Assembly (NCBI GenBank): GCA_018266765.1
Contig: JAFDZU010000010.1
Location: 4,916-68,915 of the forward strand
Length of the DNA: 64,000 nucleotides
Origin: Bacteroidota bacterium
GTDB taxonomy: Bacteria; Bacteroidota; Ignavibacteria; Kapaibacteriales; UBA961
Reading direction: 5' to 3'
Part shown: in pieces, positions 40,820 through 59,279 of the stretch
Numbering within the stretch: position 1 is the stretch's first letter
How the letters are laid out: every line of letters starts with the position of its first letter
The notes under the pieces: generated by a model
Database searches by the model: none
Seen by the model: the letters and a program-made list of their open reading frames with translations, nothing else
Told to the model about the DNA's origin: nothing
Position numbers and translations under genes: made by a program

Positions 40820-42394
40820 TTAATGACTAACAATTATTGGTTTCATAATAGTCCCTTTTAAAGAGTGAATAACCGCAAAGTACATTCCACTTGCCAAGTG
40901 GGTAGCATCAATCTCAGCTTTACTGTTAATTACTTGCTGATTTGCGACTTCCATACCTATACTATTCATAATATGTAGCGATGTACCGTTTTCTATCCCC
41001 GATATTGTTACGGTTGTTGTTGTTGGGGTTGGATAGACAGAGATATTGTCATTAGGAATTAGTACTTGCTCCAAAACCCCTGTTGCTCTTGGGCGAAGGC
41101 GTGTGATTTGTATAGATGTTTCTTGTTCTTTCCCGTAAACTATACTGTTACAAACAAATACTACATCTCCATTTGGTGCTTCAGCAAAACTCATAATTCT
41201 ATTCATAAGATTTTTATCTCCTGTTGTATAATACCAATCACATTCACCTTCATCATTCAATTTTGCAATAATACCTAAATGAGCATCTGAATAATTAATT
41301 GAGCCGTCATCTTTAAAAGAATAGATTTCACCGGTAATAAAAAAACCGCCCGTATTTCCTTTTGTAATTTCAAAATAAAAGAATTTAAGGTTTTTTAATA
41401 GTTCAGGTTGTTTTTTCCATAATAAGTTTCCTTTAGTATCATATTTTGACGTAATAAATGTTCTATCACTGCTACCTTGCAAGATAAAATATGACCCATC
41501 AGTATTGATTGCAACATCTGCTTCATTTTCCGTATGAATGACTAAGCGATTTATAAATTCAAATTCATTTGTGTATCGAAGTAACGTAACACTCCTTGCA
41601 GTATCTAAAGGAAACAACCCCGAATTTACTATGGTAAATGAAGCACTATTATACGGTAATATGCCTCGTATTCTATTATACATATCCTTTTTATATTCAT
41701 TATTGAACGAAAGTGTATTCTGTATTTTTGTAAACGAAGTATCAATCGAGAAAATCGAAATGCTGTCGGATTTCTCTCTATTTACATACACTCTTGTGTC
41801 AGGAAAAATAGTATAAACAGGTCCATGAGGAAGTGACTTTGGTAAAAGGGTACGAGTTGATTTTTCTTCCTTGACAGTTCCATCCGGAGAAATAATGAAT
41901 CTAATTGGATATGTGTCATAAAACCGAAATTGGTCTATCTTTCCTTCGTAGCCATAGACAAGAATATCACCATTGGTAAGTTCCGAAATATTCTCAAATC
42001 GTATATAATACTTTGAGGTATCTTCAGGAAAATCTTCAGAAAATTTCCTGTTGATTGTCCATTCTATCGCACCACTACCATTAATTTTTGTAAGTAATCC
42101 CCCCCTATTATAGATATGGCTAGCATAATAGAAACTGCCATCAGAAGCCGCAAAAAAGTGATTGGTCGTTATATCATGCCACTCCGGCTTATACACTAAC
42201 TTTTGCCAAACAGAATCAACTTCTCCACCTATTGTTGTTTTGAAGACATTGTTACTCAGAATACGAGAACCGCTTTTACTTTTGTGAATGTTTGGAGCTA
42301 ATTCTTGGGCTCCCAATGAATGGATGCTGTTATTAATATCTACCGTTAGAGAAGATAACAGTACAACCAAAAAAATTACAATATTATTTTTCAT
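40820..42394 (-). CDS. Secreted protein with a T9SS C-terminal sorting domain.
   Basis: Signal peptide MKNNIVIFLVVLLSSLTV. C-terminus …ISVYPTPTTTTVTISGIENGTSLHIMNSIGMEVANQ…ASGMYFAVIHSLKGTIMKPIIVSH is a Por_Secre_tail pattern. Confidence 0.65.
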   Translation of the reverse strand: MKNNIVIFLVVLLSSLTVDINNSIHSLGAQELAPNIHKSKSGSRILSNNVFKTTIGGEVDSVWQKLVYKPEWHDITTNHFFAASDGSFYYASHIYNRGGLLTKINGSGAIEWTINRKFSEDFPEDTSKYYIRFENISELTNGDILVYGYEGKIDQFRFYDTYPIRFIISPDGTVKEEKSTRTLLPKSLPHGPVYTIFPDTRVYVNREKSDSISIFSIDTSFTKIQNTLSFNNEYKKDMYNRIRGILPYNSASFTIVNSGLFPLDTARSVTLLRYTNEFEFINRLVIHTENEADVAINTDGSYFILQGSSDRTFITSKYDTKGNLLWKKQPELLKNLKFFYFEITKGNTGGFFITGEIYSFKDDGSINYSDAHLGIIAKLNDEGECDWYYTTGDKNLMNRIMSFAEAPNGDVVFVCNSIVYGKEQETSIQITRLRPRATGVLEQVLIPNDNISVYPTPTTTTVTISGIENGTSLHIMNSIGMEVANQQVINSKAEIDATHLASGMYFAVIHSLKGTIMKPIIVSH

Positions 42395-42624: not shown

Positions 42625-43488
42625 TTATTCCGGGCAGCTTAGAGAATAACAGCCGGTACGATGAACTATAGTACATCCGTCCGGAGCGGTAAATGAAGAA
42701 AACCCGGTACAAGATGTAGAGAAACCGTAAGATGTAGTTGTAGGATTACAAGTACGAACCTCTCCGGTTGAAACATCATAACACATCTGCCAAGTTTTGA
42801 TACAACATTTTGAAGATTCACAAGCCATCCTCCAAGTTCCGGCAAATGGGGATCCTGTTGATGATGTTAATTCAAGGAATTCATAACATTCAGCGGAATA
42901 TGATCGTACCACTGCAAAGCCAGAGCCGGACGCACATCCTGTTGAGCCGAGGCAATCATAGCTACTATTTCCTTGTCGAATATAATTTTTAAAAAAGTGT
43001 TTAGCTGCAAGAATGTGTCCATAAGGCCAGATAGATTCAGATATACTCTTCCATGTAGCTTTTTCAGCAGGAGTACCATTAATGGCTATGTTCTTAAAGT
43101 AGTCATAACAAGGATTAGCTATCTGATACTGATTGACTTCGACTTCATACGTAGTACCACACCATCTATACCTATATCCAAAACATACTTGACAGCCGAC
43201 AGATAAACCATCAATTGGTATATAGACAGTTGTACAAAGATCAGTATTAAGTGGAGAAGAATTTACTTGCGTCCAGGTAGTCCATGTACATCCAACTGTT
43301 GCAGGTCCACAGTCTTCTCCCTTTGCATTAGGAGAATAACTTAATGAAGAAATAAAGACTATAAGAAGTGCAAGCCAAATGGCTTTTCCTCCTAACTCTC
43401 TATGTAAACAAGAGGTTAAATTGCGTGGACTCGGGGGGGGGGGGGACAGTAACTGCATTCCACATATAAGCGGAACTACGGCGAACAT
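42625..43488 (-). CDS. Cysteine-rich secreted protein of unknown function, with a homopolymeric tract in its 5' coding region.
   Basis: ATG at 43488. Hydrophobic signal-like segment KAIWLALLIVFISSLSYSPNA, preceded by a 33-aa extension containing SPPPPSP, which is encoded by the G13/C13 tract. The mature part has ~19 Cys (DCGP, GCTW, KCCIK, SCPE…). No family recognised. Confidence 0.55.
   Translation of the reverse strand: MFAVVPLICGMQLLSPPPPSPRNLTSCLHRELGGKAIWLALLIVFISSLSYSPNAKGEDCGPATVGCTWTTWTQVNSSPLNTDLCTTVYIPIDGLSVGCQVCFGYRYRWCGTTYEVEVNQYQIANPCYDYFKNIAINGTPAEKATWKSISESIWPYGHILAAKHFFKNYIRQGNSSYDCLGSTGCASGSGFAVVRSYSAECYEFLELTSSTGSPFAGTWRMACESSKCCIKTWQMCYDVSTGEVRTCNPTTTSYGFSTSCTGFSSFTAPDGCTIVHRTGCYSLSCPE
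43433..43445 (-). repeat. Homopolymeric G13 tract (C13 on the coding strand). A candidate slipped-strand phase-variation switch.
   Basis: tcGGGGGGGGGGGGGacagt lies 14 codons into the ORF that starts at 43488. A length of 13 keeps the frame; +/-1 leads to a stop within ~10-15 codons. Confidence 0.75.
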
Positions 43489-43823
43489 TAGGGAGAAATT
43501 GCATAAAGCACTCCATAAATAATTAGTTAAAAAATAATACTATATTTATGTTAGGAAAACAATTCCAACAGACAACCCAAATTACTATTTAATTTTATTA
43601 CATGCAAGACCTTTGCTTAATAAAATTAATTATTCCAAAATGTTATTATCGGTTAAATATTTTCTGATTATTTAATTTTTGTTTAATTTGCAAGTAGGGT
43701 AGTGATAGGACGACCCTTACTCACAAAAAACGACGTTATCCTTCACGCGCTTAATTCTATATAAACTATTGATTTAATAATTTCGCTGTTACCGTGAGTT
43801 ATACAGCACAAGGAGAAATTATT

Positions 43824-44363
43824 ATGTCTAAAAATAGGCATCGTCTTTATGAAGGGAAAATAAAAGCATCCCTTCTTCTCAAAAATCTTCGCTCAGAAGA
43901 CCTTGAAACGGCACAACTATCTGCCCGCCGTTTTCAAATCCTCCCACAATATTCTGCTCTCGATAGTGAGTTAATTAATTTGCAGAGTAAAACTGTGCGG
44001 TTAAAACATGCTCTTGAGGTAATTGCACTCGAACATGGAGTTTCTGATTGGAGCAGGTTTAAGCGGAAAATTACCGAAGAAGACTGTTTGTATCCTCAAA
44101 CGTGGAGCGCGCATTTCAATACATGGTATGCAAACTACGACGAGGCGAAAGACCATCTCAATAAAGTGGGTGGATATTTACTTCGTTATCGGCAACACTA
44201 TTTTATTTGCGAAAATGGATATATCCAAGCGTTAGGTTTGGAAGAATTTCAAGCTGAATGGGAACGCATCGGCTATGATTGGGTAAAGCCCTCAGATATA
44301 CTATCGTGGAATGTATTATTCAAAGAAGCTGAAAAGCAATATTTGGCTCGAATGCCAAAGTAG
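43824..44363 (+). CDS. Hypothetical cytoplasmic protein (179 aa), divergent from the Cys-rich gene.
   Basis: The ORF track begins with GTG at 43794. ATG 43824 is preceded by AGGAG (caaggagaaattattATG). No signal peptide and no recognisable domain. Confidence 0.5.
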   Translation: MSKNRHRLYEGKIKASLLLKNLRSEDLETAQLSARRFQILPQYSALDSELINLQSKTVRLKHALEVIALEHGVSDWSRFKRKITEEDCLYPQTWSAHFNTWYANYDEAKDHLNKVGGYLLRYRQHYFICENGYIQALGLEEFQAEWERIGYDWVKPSDILSWNVLFKEAEKQYLARMPK

Positions 44364-44432: not shown

Positions 44433-46097
44433 TTATACTTGCAACACACCCGATTTCCAAACCTTTACTTCTGCATTATGAGAAGCAACTGCAAGTCCTC
44501 TCGAAACGATAAATCTTGTTTCCATTGGCGATATTATACCATCTACCCAAAGCTGTGAAGCCGCATAAAGTGGTTCTGTTTGCGCTGTATATTGGTCTTG
44601 AATTTCATTTAATAATTCTTTTTGTTCGGCTTCTGTTAATACTTTTCCAAGTTTTTTAAGGGAAGCAAGTTTAATTGTCAGTAGAGTTTTTGATGCTTGT
44701 GCGCCACCCATCACTGCTATTTGTGCAGATGGATAAGCGAATATAAGACGTGGGTCATACGCTTTTCCGCACATAGCATAATTTCCAGCTCCATAACTGT
44801 TTCCGACAATAAAAGTGAATTTGGGGACAACTGAATTTGAAACTGCATTGACCATTTTCGCACCGTCTTTTATGATTCCGCCTTGTTCGGCACGAGTTCC
44901 GACCATGAATCCTGTAACATCTTGAAAAAATACCAACGGAATACCTCGTTGATTACAATTCATGATAAATCGAGCTGCTTTATCTGCGCTTTCGGAATAG
45001 ATAACACCACCGATTTGCATTTCACCCGCACCAGACCGAACTATCTCACGATTATTAGCTACAATACCGACTGCCCAGCCATCAATACGAGCATAACCAC
45101 ATATTATAGTTTTGCCGTATTCAGCTTTGTACTCATCAAGTTCGGAGTTGTCGAGTATGCGAGCTAACAGTTCGTAAGTGCTATATGGTTTCGTTCGCTC
45201 TGAAGGAATAATTGAAAGTATTTCTTCTTCGGGGAATTTCGGCGGAACTGATGCCGACCGCTCAAAAATATTCTTTTGTCCTTTTGCCGGAGCAAACTTA
45301 CTGACCAAAGACCGAATCGTTTCGAGTGCTTCTTGGTCATTTTTTACTTTATAGTCTATTACTCCTGAAATAGATGCGTGCATTTCTGCGCCACCAAGTG
45401 GTTCAATGCCTGTTCTTTCACCGATTGCTGCCTCGACTAATGCAGGTCCGGCTAAAAATACACTTCCTGTTCCCTCTACAATAATTGCCTCATCACTCAT
45501 AATTGGTAAATATGCTCCGCCTGCAACACAAGGCCCCATAATAGCTGCAATTTGAGGCACACCCAAGCCGGATAACAGAGCATTGTTGCGAAATTGCCGT
45601 CCAAAATGTTCTTTATCAGGGAAAATTTCATCTTGCATCGGTAAAAATACACCTGCTGAATCCACCAGATAAATTATAGGAAGATGATTTTCAATGGCTA
45701 TTTCTTGCGCTCTCATATTTTTTTTTGCGGTCATCGGAAACCAAGCACCGGCTTTTACAGTTGCATCATTTGCAACAATCATACATTCGCGTCCGCTAAT
45801 TATTCCTATCCCACAAACGACACCTGCACTTGGTGCACCACCTTGATCGGCATACATATCATAAGCGGCAAAAAGTCCAATCTCTAGAAACTCTGAACTC
45901 TCGTCTGTTAGAAGTTCTATTCGTTCTCTTGCTGTCAATTTTCCTTTTGCTTTATGCTTTGCAATCGAGGATTTCCCGCCCCCAAGTTTAACTTTTGTAC
46001 CTTTGGCGGTAATGATTCGTAAGAGTTCAGAATTTACATCACGGTTTTTTTCCGTCGGAAGGTCAGATAGAAGAGGAGTGCCGATTTGTTTGGACAT
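44433..46097 (-). CDS. Acyl-CoA carboxylase carboxyltransferase subunit (propionyl-CoA carboxylase beta / methylmalonyl-CoA decarboxylase alpha family).
   Basis: 554 aa. Carboxyl_trans domain motifs …GGGKSSIAKHKAKGKLTARERIELL…, AGVVCGIGIISGRECMIVANDATVKAGA and GIVANNREIVRSGAG. Confidence 0.85.
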   Translation of the reverse strand: MSKQIGTPLLSDLPTEKNRDVNSELLRIITAKGTKVKLGGGKSSIAKHKAKGKLTARERIELLTDESSEFLEIGLFAAYDMYADQGGAPSAGVVCGIGIISGRECMIVANDATVKAGAWFPMTAKKNMRAQEIAIENHLPIIYLVDSAGVFLPMQDEIFPDKEHFGRQFRNNALLSGLGVPQIAAIMGPCVAGGAYLPIMSDEAIIVEGTGSVFLAGPALVEAAIGERTGIEPLGGAEMHASISGVIDYKVKNDQEALETIRSLVSKFAPAKGQKNIFERSASVPPKFPEEEILSIIPSERTKPYSTYELLARILDNSELDEYKAEYGKTIICGYARIDGWAVGIVANNREIVRSGAGEMQIGGVIYSESADKAARFIMNCNQRGIPLVFFQDVTGFMVGTRAEQGGIIKDGAKMVNAVSNSVVPKFTFIVGNSYGAGNYAMCGKAYDPRLIFAYPSAQIAVMGGAQASKTLLTIKLASLKKLGKVLTEAEQKELLNEIQDQYTAQTEPLYAASQLWVDGIISPMETRFIVSRGLAVASHNAEVKVWKSGVLQV

Positions 46098-46385
46098 AAT
46101 AAAATAGGTTTGAGGTTGAGTATGATTGTAAAAGTTTTAAAATTTATATTATTCTAAAACATTAGAAGAATTAAAAAAAATATGTTCTTCTTCTCAGTAT
46201 AAAAATCAGAATGCTAAATGATTTTAATATTGAGATAATTCTTTAATTAGTATTTGGTTGTTATAGATAATAATTGTATCTTAATAAATTCAAATTATAT
46301 AGAGTAAAGTAATATATAAATAATATTAAGTTCAAGCTGTATAATTGATTCTCATTTTATTTTTATAATATTCAGGGGTATAAAA

Positions 46386-46955
46386 ATGAAAACTATTCAA
46401 GAGAGAATAGAACACTTAAATAAACTTAGTAGTAAATTAAGCAAAAAATACGAAAAGTTAGAAGAAAAATATGAAAAATTGCGTAAAAAATCAGAACTCT
46501 TAAAAGAGCAGGCAATGCTTATTGACTCGGCTTACCAACACTTAAATTCTGAAATAGAACGAACAGATAAAATGGCTCATCGTGAAATAAATGTGATGGA
46601 TTATCCGGTTGAAAACACAGAAATTCATAGCAAAATTCAATCCTTCTTAATAGAGACCAACAGTGGGAACTCAAAAAAATTGGGGAGACCATTAGGTGCG
46701 AAAAATAAGAAGTCGAAAAAAAATGAGAATTCTAAAGTTAATATAGAACAACTACTTCCCAAAAAACGTGGAAGACCGTTAGGAGCTAAAAACAAGAGAA
46801 AAAGAAAAGTTAAACCTGAAGATTTGGTTGCAAAAATACCAAAACCACTCGGCAGACCACCCGGCTCGAAAAATAAAAAGAAGAAAAGACTCGGCAGACC
46901 AATTGGCTCAAAGAATAAAAAAACAATTCTTCGGGAAGAACATAATGGTGAATAA
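46386..46955 (+). CDS. Coiled-coil protein with four AT-hook-like GRP repeats; putative AT-rich-DNA-binding or nucleoid-associated protein.
   Basis: N-terminal heptads (LSKKYEKLEEKYEKLRKKSELLKEQ). The C-terminal half carries LGRPLGAKNKKSKK, RGRPLGAKNKRKRK, LGRPPGSKNKKKKR and LGRPIGSKNKK, which are AT-hook core (G)RP flanked by K/R. Confidence 0.6.
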   Translation: MKTIQERIEHLNKLSSKLSKKYEKLEEKYEKLRKKSELLKEQAMLIDSAYQHLNSEIERTDKMAHREINVMDYPVENTEIHSKIQSFLIETNSGNSKKLGRPLGAKNKKSKKNENSKVNIEQLLPKKRGRPLGAKNKRKRKVKPEDLVAKIPKPLGRPPGSKNKKKKRLGRPIGSKNKKTILREEHNGE

Positions 46956-47024
46956 GAATTTTAAGTGTTCTAAAGAATAACAGTTGCTGTTAATTCTAAA
47001 CTTAGATTTGTGTTTTTATTGTAT

Positions 47025-47576
47025 CTAATGGATTCTTAGTACTCGTTTTTTCAATAGTTTATCTGCTATCCAAAGTAAGGCAACTGAACAAAGCAAAAGT
47101 ATGAGTGAACTGAAGCTTTTTATGGGTAGAAATGATGCAAGAGTCATAAAAAAATCTGTAATAGAATGCCCGGATGTCACCAACCAATCAGAATAAGAGT
47201 GTATGATCAAATGAACTTCTGATGGTTTTGATTCAGCAGACTGGTGTTGCGGAATTGATGAAATCAATATCCCTAAACTTATGATTATGGATGCGGCTAC
47301 GAACCATTTCAGGCGGAATATTTCTAGATTTGAAAGTTTGAGATTCGCTTTTGGTAATGGCTCAGTCACAACTGTATTCATTAATTTTAATGAAAATTGA
47401 TGTGATGGCTCGAATATAGGACTACGTTCGAGAGTTTCTGTACATTCCTTGTGAAAATCTACTTCGGCACGGCATGTGGCACATTCTCGAAGATGAACTT
47501 CAATACGCTTCGCTTCACCTAGTTGAGCGGTGTTGTCAATATACTCGAAAATCTGTTCAAGCGATAAATGTTTCAT
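47025..47576 (-). CDS. Membrane anti-sigma factor (zinc-finger-type anti-sigma domain plus a single TM).
   Basis: Directly downstream of the ECF sigma gene on the same strand. N-terminal HLRECATCRAEVDFHKEC (HxxxCxxC-like). TM WFVAASIIISLGILISSIP. Confidence 0.6.
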   Translation of the reverse strand: MKHLSLEQIFEYIDNTAQLGEAKRIEVHLRECATCRAEVDFHKECTETLERSPIFEPSHQFSLKLMNTVVTEPLPKANLKLSNLEIFRLKWFVAASIIISLGILISSIPQHQSAESKPSEVHLIIHSYSDWLVTSGHSITDFFMTLASFLPIKSFSSLILLLCSVALLWIADKLLKKRVLRIH

Positions 47577-47603: not shown

Positions 47604-48179
47604 TTACGTGAAATTAACCTTTTCAGGTAAGCGACGTGAAATAGCTTCACGAAGCATTAACCTACCACGAAAAAGACGTGTTTTTACAGTCCCGAGTGGC
47701 ATTCCGGTAATAGCTGTTATCTCGTCATACCGCATTTGCTGAACGAAAAAAAGAGTTAAAACTGACGAATACTCCACCGGTAAACGTTCTATTTCTCGGT
47801 AAATAACATTATTGTCTTCAGACTCTTCCATGAGTTCATCCGGTGAAGTTGCTTTAGATGCTATTTGCAGTTCAACGTTATTTATATCCTCACCCAGAGA
47901 TGTAAATGAAATATTACCTCTTTTTTCGAGAGCAGACGCGCAAACATTATAGACGATTCGGTAGAACCACGTAGCAAAATTTGCCTTTCCTTCGAAACTT
48001 CCAAGCGACCGAAACACCCGCAAAAAAGCATCCTGTAATGCTTCTTCGGCATCCTCACGGTTTTTCAGCATTCTCATTGCCAGTGTCATTGCTTTTGACT
48101 GATGACGATCAACAAGTATCGAAAATGCTCGGCGGTCACCCCTAAGGATTTTTTGAATTATTTCGTATTCTTTTATCAT
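47604..48179 (-). CDS. ECF-type RNA polymerase sigma factor.
   Basis: Region 2 FSILVDRHQSKAMTLAMRMLKNREDAEEALQDAFLRVF. Region 4 RYDEITAITGMPLGTVKTRLFRGRLMLRE. Confidence 0.8.
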   Translation of the reverse strand: MIKEYEIIQKILRGDRRAFSILVDRHQSKAMTLAMRMLKNREDAEEALQDAFLRVFRSLGSFEGKANFATWFYRIVYNVCASALEKRGNISFTSLGEDINNVELQIASKATSPDELMEESEDNNVIYREIERLPVEYSSVLTLFFVQQMRYDEITAITGMPLGTVKTRLFRGRLMLREAISRRLPEKVNFT

Positions 48180-48400
48180 TTAGAGTGACTTAATTCAACT
48201 ATATATAGATTGTTCGATTTACCAATAAATTTCATTTACTTTATTAGACCGGAAAATAATGATAAGAGTTTCAAATGTAAAATGATTTTCAAAATTTATT
48301 GAAAATTATAATTTTTTACTAAAACTGAAACCTAAAATACTTTTTTTCGGTCAAAGTAGGAAAGGTTATCAATTATTCAATTATTTAAAAAGAGGTAAAC

Positions 48401-59120: not shown

Positions 59121-59279
59121 AATTAAAGCAGTTATTATTTCTAAAATTGGTTGTTTAGTAGACAAAATTACGAATTATGAATTTAAATAACTATTAAAAC
59201 AAAAAATATAAACATCTATAAAGTACTACGATTTTTTGTTTATTGACTATAACGAGTATTATTGGTTTATTATTCTAAT

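Follow-up and report, generated by a model that had tools for sequence, protein, structure and literature searches.

The window (the whole 64,000-nucleotide stretch of DNA analyzed) encodes a protein in which a predicted N-terminal helix is followed by four AT-hook-like units. Its gene is divergent from one for an acyl-CoA carboxyltransferase, from which it is separated by an AT-rich intergenic spacer, and it converges on two paired genes, for an ECF sigma and an anti-sigma. The protein is 100% identical to JST20_02360 (“hypothetical protein”; database entry P0001), an NCBI protein from a metagenome-assembled genome (MAG). Positions of all features are listed in Table 1.

Table 1. Features in and around the AT-hook gene, in window coordinates.
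Feature	Position	Strand	Basis or remark
Acyl-CoA carboxyltransferase gene (Carboxyl_trans), 554 aa	44433–46097	-	Pfam PF01039, E = 2e-149
Divergent intergenic spacer, carboxyltransferase/AT-hook genes	46098–46385		288 bp, 18.1% GC
Candidate AT-hook gene promoter, TTGGTT-17 nt-TATCTT	46254–46282	+	implies a leader of ~95 nt
Translation-initiation region, TCAGGGGTATAAAA	46366–46385	+	Shine-Dalgarno-like AGGGG; directly before ATG
AT-hook protein gene, 189 aa	46386–46955	+	ORF call, ATG start
Conserved N-terminal domain, residues 1–66	46386–46583	+	88% mean column identity, five members
Predicted single alpha-helix with zipper heptads, residues 4–71	46395–46598	+	AlphaFold2 and heptad table
AT-hook unit 1, LGRPLGAKNKKSKK	46680–46721	+	first Arg of RGRP core replaced by Leu; aligns with RGRP hooks of orthologs
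AT-hook unit 2, RGRPLGAKNKRKRK	46767–46808	+	canonical RGRP core
AT-hook unit 3, LGRPPGSKNKKKKR	46848–46889	+	motif and alignment
AT-hook unit 4, LGRPIGSKNKK	46890–46922	+	motif
zf-HC2 anti-sigma gene	47025–47576	-	convergent with AT-hook gene
ECF sigma gene	47604–48179	-	convergent with AT-hook gene

The gene, its family and its neighborhood

The AT-hook gene is real and under purifying selection, because dN/dS over its first 66 codons is only 0.04–0.13 in ortholog comparisons despite near-saturated synonymous sites. The reading frame is unbroken in five diverged genomes, and every length change is in-frame. The protein sequence shows no signal peptide or hydrophobic N-terminus, and the net charge of whole family proteins ranges from +20 to +32.

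Five members of the family were found, namely the window protein and four orthologs. This count includes an exhaustive HMMER profile search of 1.84 billion representatives, in which the N-terminal domain matched this family only. All members come from Bacteroidota/Ignavibacteria-type MAGs or from unlabelled metagenome contigs, and the family therefore seems to lack a cultured host. The earlier note had called for a check of distribution and copy number; besides the family size, this gave a single locus per genome in the two species-representative genomes with the gene. Among the matches listed, a scan of metagenome contigs re-found only the contig of member P0002. Viral contigs contained no member, and the phage collection yielded a single weak, hook-only match. 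A word-indexed search with the N-terminal domain alignment returned nothing, known members included, which we ascribe to low-complexity words; the HMMER search supersedes it. Elsewhere, P0041 is a “helix plus hooks” orphan, and P0038 is a hook-only protein located in defence/mobile islands.

The AT-hook protein matched no family in searches of Pfam, NCBIfam, PDB sequences, PHROGs and PADLOC. The repeats thus do not belong to any known ribosomal or histone-like family as its basic tail, the outcome that the earlier note had named as refuting its interpretation. Matches to Spc7, SMC, ZorA and LmuB were dismissed as sub-threshold coiled-coil noise. A Foldseek comparison of the protein model with the PDB gave 0 matches, a lone helix plus disorder being uninformative as a query.

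The AT-hook gene is divergent from the carboxyltransferase gene in all four loci that are long enough (the window, L001, L007 and L008), and the carboxyltransferase proteins of the compared loci are 90–95% identical, with 90–92% for L001, L007 and L008. As far as shown, the carboxyltransferase is a conserved syntenic partner of housekeeping type and not part of the AT-hook mechanism. The next upstream gene and a downstream deaminase-rhodanese-PPIase block are also conserved across related loci. Both members of the ECF sigma/anti-sigma pair reported beside the gene were confirmed. This pair adjoins the AT-hook gene in only two of five loci, the window and L003 (orthologs at 57% and 65% identity); no homologs occur in the 12–20 kb covered for each of L001, L007 and L008, in which the AT-hook gene is followed by an adenine deaminase. 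The genes around the AT-hook gene are ordinary, local GC content is unremarkable, and no tRNAs or integrase, transposase or other mobile-element genes are found nearby. With the synteny conserved, we rejected placement on an accessory island, and with it the “accessory patch” on which the protein had been supposed to act. The gene occupies an ordinary, conserved, core-like chromosomal position.

A predicted zipper helix and an array of AT-hooks

The N-terminal domain is the sole well-conserved part of the family. The AlphaFold2 model consists here of one helix, with pLDDT values of 91–98 to about residue 60. Leu or Ile occupies positions 4, 11, 18, 25, 32, 39, 46 and 53 (4+7n, eight heptads) in all five members, in keeping with the N-terminal heptad coiled coil noticed at first reading. 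The probability of Leu/Ile at 8/8 positions in one register is ~1e-5, given that 13 of the 66 residues are Leu or Ile. A 21-nt tandem repeat (46434–46480) has the length of exactly one heptad, which points to internal heptad duplication. From this model and register we infer a dimerization or oligomerization module. The residues at 8+7n are I/L, S, Y, Y, S/A, A and Y, and Ser, Tyr and Ala at “a” positions are unlike a textbook dimeric zipper. Almost all surface positions of the helix are conserved as well, at the column identity given in Table 1, which suggests an extra partner or function beyond dimerization.

All four AT-hook-like units quoted in the earlier note are present exactly in the ORF. 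Across all six frames of the 64 kb, the pattern GRPxGxK is confined to these units, so its four copies within 95 residues are not due to chance. The number of GRPxG[AS]KNK units is 4 in the window protein and 3–6 in each ortholog. The family hook consensus is (K/R)(K/R)RGRPPG(A/S)KNKK, with linkers of 14–42 residues, and the tail as a whole has low pLDDT (41–57 in AlphaFold2, predicted disorder) and 20–29% Lys+Arg. While the GRP, G, K and N positions of the hooks are invariant among the five members, the linkers vary in both length and sequence, as would be expected if the hooks were functional linear motifs within a disordered stretch. The invariant residues include G129, R130, P131, G133 and K135 in unit 2, and G156, R157, P158, P159, G160, K162 and N163 in unit 3. 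Units 3 and 4 are identical at 27/33 nt, indicating a tandem duplication.

The published AT-hook core is Arg-Gly-Arg with Pro, to which the type-I subclass adds Gly-Ser-Lys-Asn-Lys (PMC4209074), and the family motif equals this. Every window hook is followed by G[AS]KNK(K/R) and has K/R-rich flanks, consistent with the type-I extension. The GRP tripeptide is found in 4/4 window units and 22/22 units of the five members. The full RGRP core is less frequent, with one of four in the window (the other three are LGRP) and 13 of 22 family-wide; the first core position of the non-RGRP hooks is L, I, M, V or Q. Binding of RGRP to the AATT minor groove is structurally established for HMGA1 (reviewed in PMC8476142). 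Both arginines of the palindromic Arg-Gly-Arg core enter the groove (PMC4209074, PMC8476142), and loss of the first Arg could weaken the LGRP hooks. The Pfam AT_hook model (PF02178) scored the peptide of hooks 3–4 at 8.5 bits (E = 2.9), below its cut-off of 17.4, and the other hook peptides were unlisted; as the model has only 13 positions, this is a weak negative, and the hook assignment rests on motif inspection.

The AT-rich spacer

The length and AT-richness of the spacer are as first described, although “almost entirely A/T” overstates a content of 82%, and “long A and T runs” overstates one A8, one A5 and one T5, with A/T-only stretches of up to 20 bp. For comparison, GC content is 35.8% in the window, and the host genome is 64% AT. 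The lowest-GC 288-bp stretch of the window (17.7%) begins 14 bp upstream of the spacer and overlaps it almost wholly. We rejected the idea that the spacer stands out as an AT island or is a favored substrate of the hooks, as it lies only 1.6 sd under the mean GC of intergenic regions ≥80 bp in the window (27.3%, sd 5.7%, n = 23), and its AATT density of 2.8 per 100 bp is mid-range among intergenic regions. Near-equal values occur at 59121–59279 (18.9% GC) and 48180–48400 (21.7%). The spacer belongs to the tail of the intergenic GC distribution and is not a separate class. Its orthologous counterparts, from at least 182 to 505 bp long, are AT-rich in five of five loci, with a GC fraction of 0.16–0.27 vs. 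0.32–0.40 for the loci themselves.

In each of the five loci, a TTGGTn/TTTGTn-17 nt-TAATTT-like pair precedes the ATG by 97–105 nt, and its spacing is exactly 17 nt. Since the pattern was derived from these same sequences, only its positional conservation counts as evidence, and a generic promoter scanner did not call the candidate promoter in the window. We also considered a Bacteroidetes-type -7 element, TAnnTTTG, for the conserved TTTGG block, but this match is imperfect; a candidate sigma-70-like reading (-35, 17 nt, -10) appears to fit all five loci better. The sequence AGGGGTAT is invariant in the five loci despite saturated synonymous sites, and a Shine-Dalgarno-like 4-mer of any kind is found for only 15 of 48 window genes.

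Two other roles for the spacer were rejected. It does not resemble a riboswitch, sRNA or structured leader, with no Rfam match at E ≤ 1 and no conserved structure in RNAalifold; a search of the whole window at Rfam gathering thresholds likewise gave no match there. Nor does it resemble a replication origin or DNA-unwinding element, as there are no DnaA-box-like sites and cumulative GC skew rises without a turn.

Proposed function and comparison with known systems

Canonical DNA binders with several AT-hooks are characteristic of chromatin in eukaryotes. We propose, with somewhat more confidence than doubt, that the window protein is a lineage-specific, cytoplasmic, zipper-dimerized, multivalent AT-hook architectural DNA binder. 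This retains the anatomy behind the DNA-binding regulator suggested in the earlier note, a hook array with an N-terminal self-association helix, and drops the action on an accessory patch. The helix of ~68 residues would pair two chains, possibly more, each bearing a disordered, strongly basic tail with 3–6 AT-hooks whose G-R-P cores would enter the minor groove of short A/T tracts. A dimer would then carry ~8 hooks on flexible linkers and could bind several AT tracts together. Such multivalent binding may bend or bridge DNA and alter promoter access, as HMGA and the tail of Myxococcus CarD do. Because sites abound in a genome of 64% AT, we would expect the protein to act generally, as a nucleoid-associated protein or a global modulator; a family of five members is unusually small for a general nucleoid protein. 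One plausible target is the AT-rich promoter and leader of the gene itself, which would make it autoregulated like hns, although an AATT density in the spacer that is not above that of other intergenic regions lends this no specific support. Dimerization, DNA binding, AT preference, global role and autoregulation are all what we infer for this protein.

A more far-reaching and unlikely reading makes the protein the founding member of an undescribed bacterial chromatin protein class, that is, an H-NS-like bridging or silencing protein of an Ignavibacteria-like Bacteroidota clade that arose independently of H-NS, Lsr2, MvaT and Rok. Under it, the protein appears to have been assembled recently from duplications of the 21-nt heptad and of a hook unit of roughly 42 nt. 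If this reading is true, P0041 and P0038 point to wider, overlooked prokaryotic AT-hook arrays.

It is improbable that the protein is a xenogeneic silencer, an analogue of H-NS, Lsr2, MvaT or Rok that polymerizes on DNA above the host-average AT content and represses horizontally acquired genes. The layout, N-terminal oligomerization and then C-terminal AT-DNA binding, does match all four families (PMC8476142), AT-hook-like Q/RGR loops are used by H-NS and Lsr2 (PMC8476142, PMC4466236), and the literature searched describes no silencer family for this Bacteroidota/Ignavibacteria lineage. However, RGR-type motifs are reported from the silencers of high-GC hosts (PMC8476142), and they would discriminate poorly in a host of 64% AT, where a silencer role is unlikely to be selective. 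Hooks would meet sites nearly throughout such a genome, and this favors a general architectural protein over a discriminating silencer. Further points against silencing are the single predicted helix, with no second interface for head-to-tail filaments, the absence of an island or mobile element adjoining the gene, and the restriction of the family to five sequences. It was also absent from viral contigs, whereas homologs of H-NS and Lsr2 have been reported from plasmids and phages (PMC7074111, PMC8612146).

Local regulation of the divergent pair, the AT-hook gene and the carboxyltransferase gene, through AT tracts of their shared spacer is improbable too. Every locus that is long enough has the divergent layout and an AT-rich spacer (288, 289, 505 and about 303 bp), and there are conserved blocks within the spacer. 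General collinearity of closely related genomes explains the synteny equally well, however, and the blocks lie on the AT-hook-gene side and resemble that gene's own promoter and ribosome-binding site. In addition, AT-hooks have low sequence specificity, and nothing links the carboxyltransferase to such a regulator.

We regard it as quite improbable that the partner of the basic tail is not AT-rich duplex DNA but a different polyanion, for example RNA, polyphosphate or a surface glycan, with the protein acting as an RNA chaperone or scaffold. The tail is highly basic and disordered, and extended AT-hooks can bind RNA, which we take in favor of this role. Heparin binding was the first known property of HbhA, whose layout is similar (PMC10665949). 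Conservation of the GRPxGxKN core, and not of overall charge, argues instead for minor-groove recognition, and the lack of a signal peptide or hydrophobic N-terminus also speaks against a polyanion binder.

That the protein serves as a CarD-like accessory factor at ECF sigma-dependent promoters, together with the neighboring pair, is very improbable. The ECF sigma/zf-HC2 pair lies 69 bp downstream in the window, and orthologs adjoin the gene in L003, but the pair is convergent and so not co-transcribed, it adjoins in two of five loci only, the Pfam search detected no CarD_TRCF RNAP-interacting domain, and no CarG-like gene was seen nearby. Lastly, that the ORF is spurious, or a functionless low-complexity translation of A-rich DNA, is scarcely credible: the coding strand is rich in A and in purines (AT skew 0.21, GC skew 0.18 over 46001–47000), short tandem duplications make up both protein halves and known families give no match, but the low dN/dS at saturated synonymous sites effectively refutes this, and the frame, kept in five diverged genomes notwithstanding length changes, and the conserved start region also oppose it.

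Compared with known systems, our favored architectural DNA binder shares single elements with several. Like bZIP proteins it has Leu at every seventh residue and a basic DNA-binding segment, with an inferred dimeric design. In bZIP proteins the basic region forms a helix continuous with the zipper, lies N-terminal to it and reads the major groove, whereas here it is C-terminal and disordered and would be expected to read the minor groove, the zipper begins at residue 4, and no bZIP Pfam match was obtained. Plant AHL proteins have the same type-I hook subtype, an RGR(P) core and then G-S-K-N-K (PMC4209074). They are eukaryotic and combine one or two hooks with a PPC/DUF296 domain, and no PPC was detected by Pfam in the AT-hook protein.

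In overall layout, H-NS, Lsr2, MvaT and Rok have N-terminal helical self-association and then C-terminal reading of AT-rich minor grooves (PMC8476142, PMC4466236). In these families the DNA-binding domain is folded and has a single hook-like loop, and there are two oligomerization interfaces, in contrast to one helix and a disordered array of 3–6 true hooks in the AT-hook family. The profile search for H-NS-like, MvaT or Lsr2 kin that the earlier note had suggested found no homology in Pfam, NCBIfam or PDB sequences, and the predicted disorder of the tail and the empty Foldseek result agree with this. HbhA of M. tuberculosis is a nucleoid-associated protein in which a coiled coil is followed by a short, basic C-terminal domain with repeats, and this domain is both required and sufficient to bind DNA (PMC10665949). 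HbhA binds DNA independently of sequence through AKKA/Lys-Pro-Ala (histone-H1-like) repeats, whereas the AT-hook family has GRP-core hooks and no homology to it. No AKKA repeats, Hc1 or Bac_DNA_binding matches were found in the AT-hook protein, which sets it apart from Hc1, from HU/Hlp proteins with basic C-terminal repeats and from HbhA.

HMGA proteins are small and monomeric, consisting solely of about three AT-hooks and a long acidic C-terminal tail, without a coiled coil, and one HMGA1 hook has a GSKNK extension. HMGA1 and HMGA2 resemble the AT-hook protein in having several RGRP hooks on a disordered basic chain, and a similar mode of binding to AATT-type tracts in the minor groove, with architectural effects, would be expected (PMC8476142, PMC2919716). 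The AT-hook family differs in its orphan zipper, 66 additional residues, and has no similarity to HMGA outside the hooks. Its acidic end is short (REEHNGE / QEENSED, 3–4 acidic residues) and limited to two of five members, the window protein and P0002.

The one bacterial case studied in depth, CarD, was for a long time regarded as restricted to myxobacteria, and in 2010 it and its Stigmatella ortholog were stated to be the sole prokaryotic proteins with domains like those of HMGA (PMC2919716). CarD of Myxococcus xanthus has four AT-hooks in a disordered C-terminal domain, which bind AT-rich minor grooves (PMC2919716, PMC6061681), and its N-terminal part, as proposed here for the helix, mediates protein-protein contacts. 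CarD differs in having an acidic region, in being myxobacterial and in its functional tie to ECF sigmas (PMC6061681); its CarD_TRCF RNAP/CarG-binding domain (PF02559) is absent from the AT-hook protein (Pfam and NCBIfam, E ≤ 1). In the window protein's family, the hook array is found in a different bacterial phylum and is fused to an orphan leucine zipper, which would mean that bacteria invented or acquired HMGA-like DNA binding independently in this case. If DNA is bound as predicted, the protein is a candidate nucleoid-associated or H-NS-like protein for a lineage for which the literature searched describes none. It would also represent a compact natural design, a dimerization helix plus a multivalent minor-groove binder, and show one way for short tandem duplications to give rise to a new DNA-binding protein. 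Judged by its sequence features, it is a member of none of these families; its tail is like that of HMGA and CarD, and its layout like that of H-NS and HbhA.

Reality and distribution of the AT-hook gene

The open reading frame described in the earlier note is present, the four hook-like peptides quoted from it are exact, and its product is identical to an NCBI entry from a metagenome-assembled genome (MAG), "hypothetical protein JST20_02360 [Bacteroidetes bacterium]" (P0001). Its orthologues include P0002, a 161-aa protein with 55% identity carried by three short metagenome contigs, and P0003, which has 180 aa and 45% identity and comes from a 50-kb contig. A scan of 185,579 species-representative genomes gave two more, a 320-aa protein from a groundwater MAG named "Ignavibacteriae bacterium" (locus L007) and a 291-aa protein from a MAG with the label "uncultured Chitinophagaceae" (locus L008), with a single locus in each of these two genomes. 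When 1.84 billion cluster representatives were searched exhaustively with a HMMER profile of the N-terminal 66 residues, P0002 and P0003 were the only family members recovered, besides three generic repeat or coiled-coil proteins (E ~1e-4). Collection scans gave no further members among the matches listed from metagenome contigs, nor in viral contigs. With the 66-column N-domain alignment as query, a word-indexed protein search gave 0 matches even though its database contains P0001–P0003; the word index seems to fail on low-complexity K/E/L words, so its negatives on such queries are not to be trusted.

Pairwise dN/dS over the first 66 codons is 0.04–0.13, with synonymous sites near saturation, which effectively excludes a spurious open reading frame, and every length difference among the orthologues is in frame. 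The gene is real, constrained, single-copy where this could be checked, and confined to a very narrow clade. Because Ignavibacteria belong to Bacteroidota in GTDB, the source labels Bacteroidetes and Ignavibacteriae are compatible; the window's Por_Secre_tail and PorZ genes agree with such a placement. Hosts of the family appear to be uncultured. The family is tiny, and its function is wholly inferred.

Coordinates of the AT-hook gene, its hook units, and neighboring features in the window.
Feature	Position	Strand	Description
Conserved hypothetical	43794-44363	+	179-189 aa (NRHRLYEGKIKASLLLKNLRS...); convergent with carboxyltransferase gene; same position in L007 and L008, 75% identity
Carboxyltransferase	44433-46097	-	554 aa; upstream, divergent; PF01039, E = 2e-149
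Spacer	46098-46385		288 bp, 18.1% GC vs. 35.8% for window
Candidate promoter of AT-hook gene	46254-46282		sigma-70-like pair
AT-hook gene	46386-46955	+	ATG start, 189 aa
AT-hook unit 1	46680-46721	+	LGRP core
AT-hook unit 2	46767-46808	+	sole full RGRP among the four window hooks
AT-hook unit 3	46848-46889	+	LGRP core; 27/33 nt identical to unit 4
AT-hook unit 4	46890-46922	+	LGRP core
zf-HC2 anti-sigma factor	47025-47576	-	downstream, convergent with AT-hook gene
ECF sigma factor	47604-48179	-	downstream, convergent with AT-hook gene

N-terminal helix and hook tail

The protein begins with a zipper-like helix that is under constraint; the disordered tail behind it carries an array of conserved hooks with a GRP core. 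Column identity over residues 1–66 averages 88% in the five members, and AlphaFold2 (with an alignment of three sequences only) predicts a single uninterrupted helix over residues 4–71, with mean pLDDT of 91–98 in the first 60 residues and a disordered remainder (41–57). All five members have Leu or Ile at positions 4, 11, 18, 25, 32, 39, 46, and 53, i.e., eight consecutive heptads, with I/L, S, Y, Y, S/A, A, and Y in order at heptad position +4. This is a leucine-zipper pattern; given 13 Leu/Ile per 66 residues, we calculate the chance of eight out of eight in one register as ~1e-5. The exposed helix faces are nearly invariant as well, which suggests that there may be an additional partner or a higher-order assembly.

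Family members carry 3–6 hooks with the consensus (K/R)(K/R)RGRPPG(A/S)KNKK, in which G-R-P, G, K, and N never vary, separated by linkers of 14–42 residues that are free in length and sequence. Lys and Arg make up 20–29% of the tails, and whole proteins have net charges of +20 to +32. The published AT-hook has an Arg-Gly-Arg core then Pro, and a "type-I" extension of Gly-Ser-Lys-Asn-Lys (PMC4209074). The tail unit would match both, with the caveat that the window hooks are mostly LGRP: RGRP occurs in 13 of 22 hooks family-wide and in one of four here, the other three having lost the first Arg. The Pfam AT_hook model (13 positions) scores 8.5 bits, below its threshold of 17.4, which leaves the motif itself as the basis for the assignment. 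Searches of Pfam, NCBIfam, PDB, PHROGs, and PADLOC, and Foldseek against PDB, matched no further family, fold, or structure, and GRPxGxK occurs nowhere else across the six reading frames of the 64 kb.

Short traces of tandem duplication are present in both halves of the gene. A 21-nt repeat (2.2 copies, 46434–46480), equal in length to one heptad, lies within the zipper and suggests that the helix may have grown via heptad duplication, while the match between hooks 3 and 4 (27 of 33 nt, 46848–46922) indicates a tandem duplication in the tail. Together they are consistent with a young gene born from repeats.

A tail-only search found small orphan proteins with 2–5 RGRPxGSKNK hooks scattered through metagenomes; prokaryotic hook arrays are therefore rare, yet not confined to the window family. 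P0041 (L011:780-1259, JGI 3300043613; 159 aa) has an Ala/Lys-rich, helix-like N-terminal segment, three RGRPPGSKNK hooks, and a C-terminal domain; it is possibly a convergent "helix plus AT-hooks" design from what looks like a high-GC organism, and one source mislabels it "septal ring factor EnvC." P0038 (L010:6001-6258, on a 101.5-kb contig of JGI 3300001199) consists of 85 aa with three RGRPxGSKNK hooks. Its neighbors encode a serine recombinase, a Prok-JAB/ThiF/Prok-E2_B trio, NYN, AAA_21, Pkinase, and MmeI_N, making its context a prokaryotic mobile or defense island around a hook-only protein. P0006 (ENA metagenome, 208 aa) has five KKRGRPKGSKNK units and then a CxxC...CxxC zinc-ribbon-like C-terminus, and P0004/P0005 ("viral metagenome," UniRef A0A6C0C547) have 2–3 hooks between unrelated N- and C-terminal segments. 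The hook tail also has a weak tblastn match in the 190-kb Microcystis phage Mel-JY01, where a hypothetical protein (PP395634.1:144414-144797) aligns with 60% of the query at 38.6% identity (E = 2e-3).

Spacer and candidate promoter

The earlier note described the spacer as nearly all A/T and as having long runs of A and of T. It is 82% A/T with A/T-only stretches of up to 20 bp, but the wording was generous in that the only homopolymers of at least 5 nt are A8, A5, and T5. The lowest-GC 288-bp stretch of the window (17.7%, from 46084) overlaps it almost wholly. Taking the longest non-overlapping ATG-ORFs as genes, the 23 intergenic regions of at least 80 bp average 27.3% GC (sd 5.7%), and the spacer's AATT density (2.8 per 100 bp) falls in the middle of the intergenic range; GC content thus varies continuously, and the spacer lies at the low end rather than in a class of its own. 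Very AT-rich regions also occur at 59121–59279 (18.9% GC) and at 48180–48400 (21.7%), both near the spacer value; the latter separates the divergent genes for the ECF sigma factor and a DUF6249 membrane protein.

Divergent spacers at four loci measure 288, 289, 505, and ~303 bp, and all are AT-rich (GC 0.18–0.27 vs. 0.36–0.41 for the locus; 0.16 vs. 0.32 for the truncated upstream stretch of L003, another orthologue locus). Alignment of the five upstream regions revealed a sigma-70-like pair 97–105 nt upstream of the ATG at every locus, TTGGTn or TTTGTn and then TAATTT, TATCTT, TAAATT, or TCACAT at exactly 17-nt spacing, as well as an invariant AGGGGTAT(A)AAAATG marking the start region. Because the promoter pattern was derived from these same five sequences, only its positional conservation counts as evidence; a generic promoter scanner did not call it. 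The spacer has no Rfam match, no conserved fold by RNAalifold, and no DnaA boxes, and cumulative GC skew does not turn there. Most simply, this is a divergent promoter region of the ordinary type with an A/T-rich leader of ~95 nt. Translation starts in Bacteroidota typically have A-rich leaders without structure, and only 15 of the 48 window genes have an SD-like 4-mer of any kind.

Proposed role and comparison with known systems

We favor, with moderate confidence, a dimeric or oligomeric architectural protein that binds AT tracts. The helix would pair two or more chains, and each hook would enter the minor groove of a short A/T tract, as in the solved structure of the HMGA1 RGRP core bound to AATT (reviewed in PMC8476142). 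With about eight hooks on flexible linkers, a dimer would bind avidly and multivalently, which could alter promoter access and make AT-rich DNA bend, loop, or form bridges. Autoregulation via the gene's own AT-rich promoter and leader is plausible, but the AATT density there is average.

A true xenogeneic silencer is unlikely. RGR-type motifs have been reported in silencers of high-GC hosts (PMC8476142), whereas this host genome is 64% AT, and we therefore rate selective silencing as less likely than a general role as a nucleoid-associated protein or global modulator. The accessory patch proposed in the earlier note is unsupported, since the neighborhood has no integrase, transposase, or tRNA and GC content around the gene is ordinary; carboxyltransferase synteny is conserved.

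That synteny bears on a further alternative, a local regulator of the divergent pair formed by the AT-hook and carboxyltransferase genes, which we consider improbable. The two genes are divergent in all four loci with a visible upstream neighbor (the window, L001, L007, and L008), and the carboxyltransferases are 90–95% identical vs. only 40–58% for the AT-hook proteins. The only Pfam signal in the conserved hypothetical protein beyond them is a sub-threshold Glyoxalase_8. Farther upstream, a 287-aa cysteine-rich ORF with a hydrophobic N-terminal segment and no Pfam match (42625–43488, minus strand) adjoins a 524-aa protein with a Por_Secre_tail (T9SS) domain (40820–42394). More doubtful still is a binder of RNA or another polyanion.

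A CarD-like cofactor of the ECF sigma factor is highly unlikely. The sigma/anti-sigma pair reported beside the gene is there, and L003 has an orthologous pair (57% identity for the anti-sigma factor, 65% for the sigma factor). Adenine deaminase, rhodanese, and PPIase genes lie downstream instead in L001, L007, and L008, with no homologue of the pair within 12–20 kb, and the adjacency looks incidental.

The hook-tail logic is common to HMGA and to the C-terminal domain of Myxococcus CarD (PMC2919716, PMC6061681), but the window family lacks the long acidic tail of the former and, in a profile search for known analogues, the CarD_TRCF domain of the latter. In 2010, CarD and its Stigmatella orthologue were called the only prokaryotic proteins with HMGA-like domains (PMC2919716). 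N-terminal oligomerization with C-terminal AT-DNA binding is the layout of H-NS-type silencers (PMC8476142), and a coiled coil with a basic repeat tail that of the mycobacterial nucleoid protein HbhA (PMC10665949); the family would share both layouts, but the same search found no folded DNA-binding domain of H-NS, Lsr2, MvaT, or Rok, and the tails have no AKKA repeats of the HbhA type. In bZIP proteins the basic and zipper parts stand in reverse order. We found no description in the literature of a zipper/AT-hook protein in Bacteroidota or Ignavibacteria. By analogy, the window protein may work like an HMGA/CarD tail joined to a self-association module of the H-NS or HbhA type. Architectural DNA binders with AT-hooks are an already known kind; the new part would be the putative orphan oligomerization module, in an architecture that is unusual for bacteria and easy to test experimentally in vitro.
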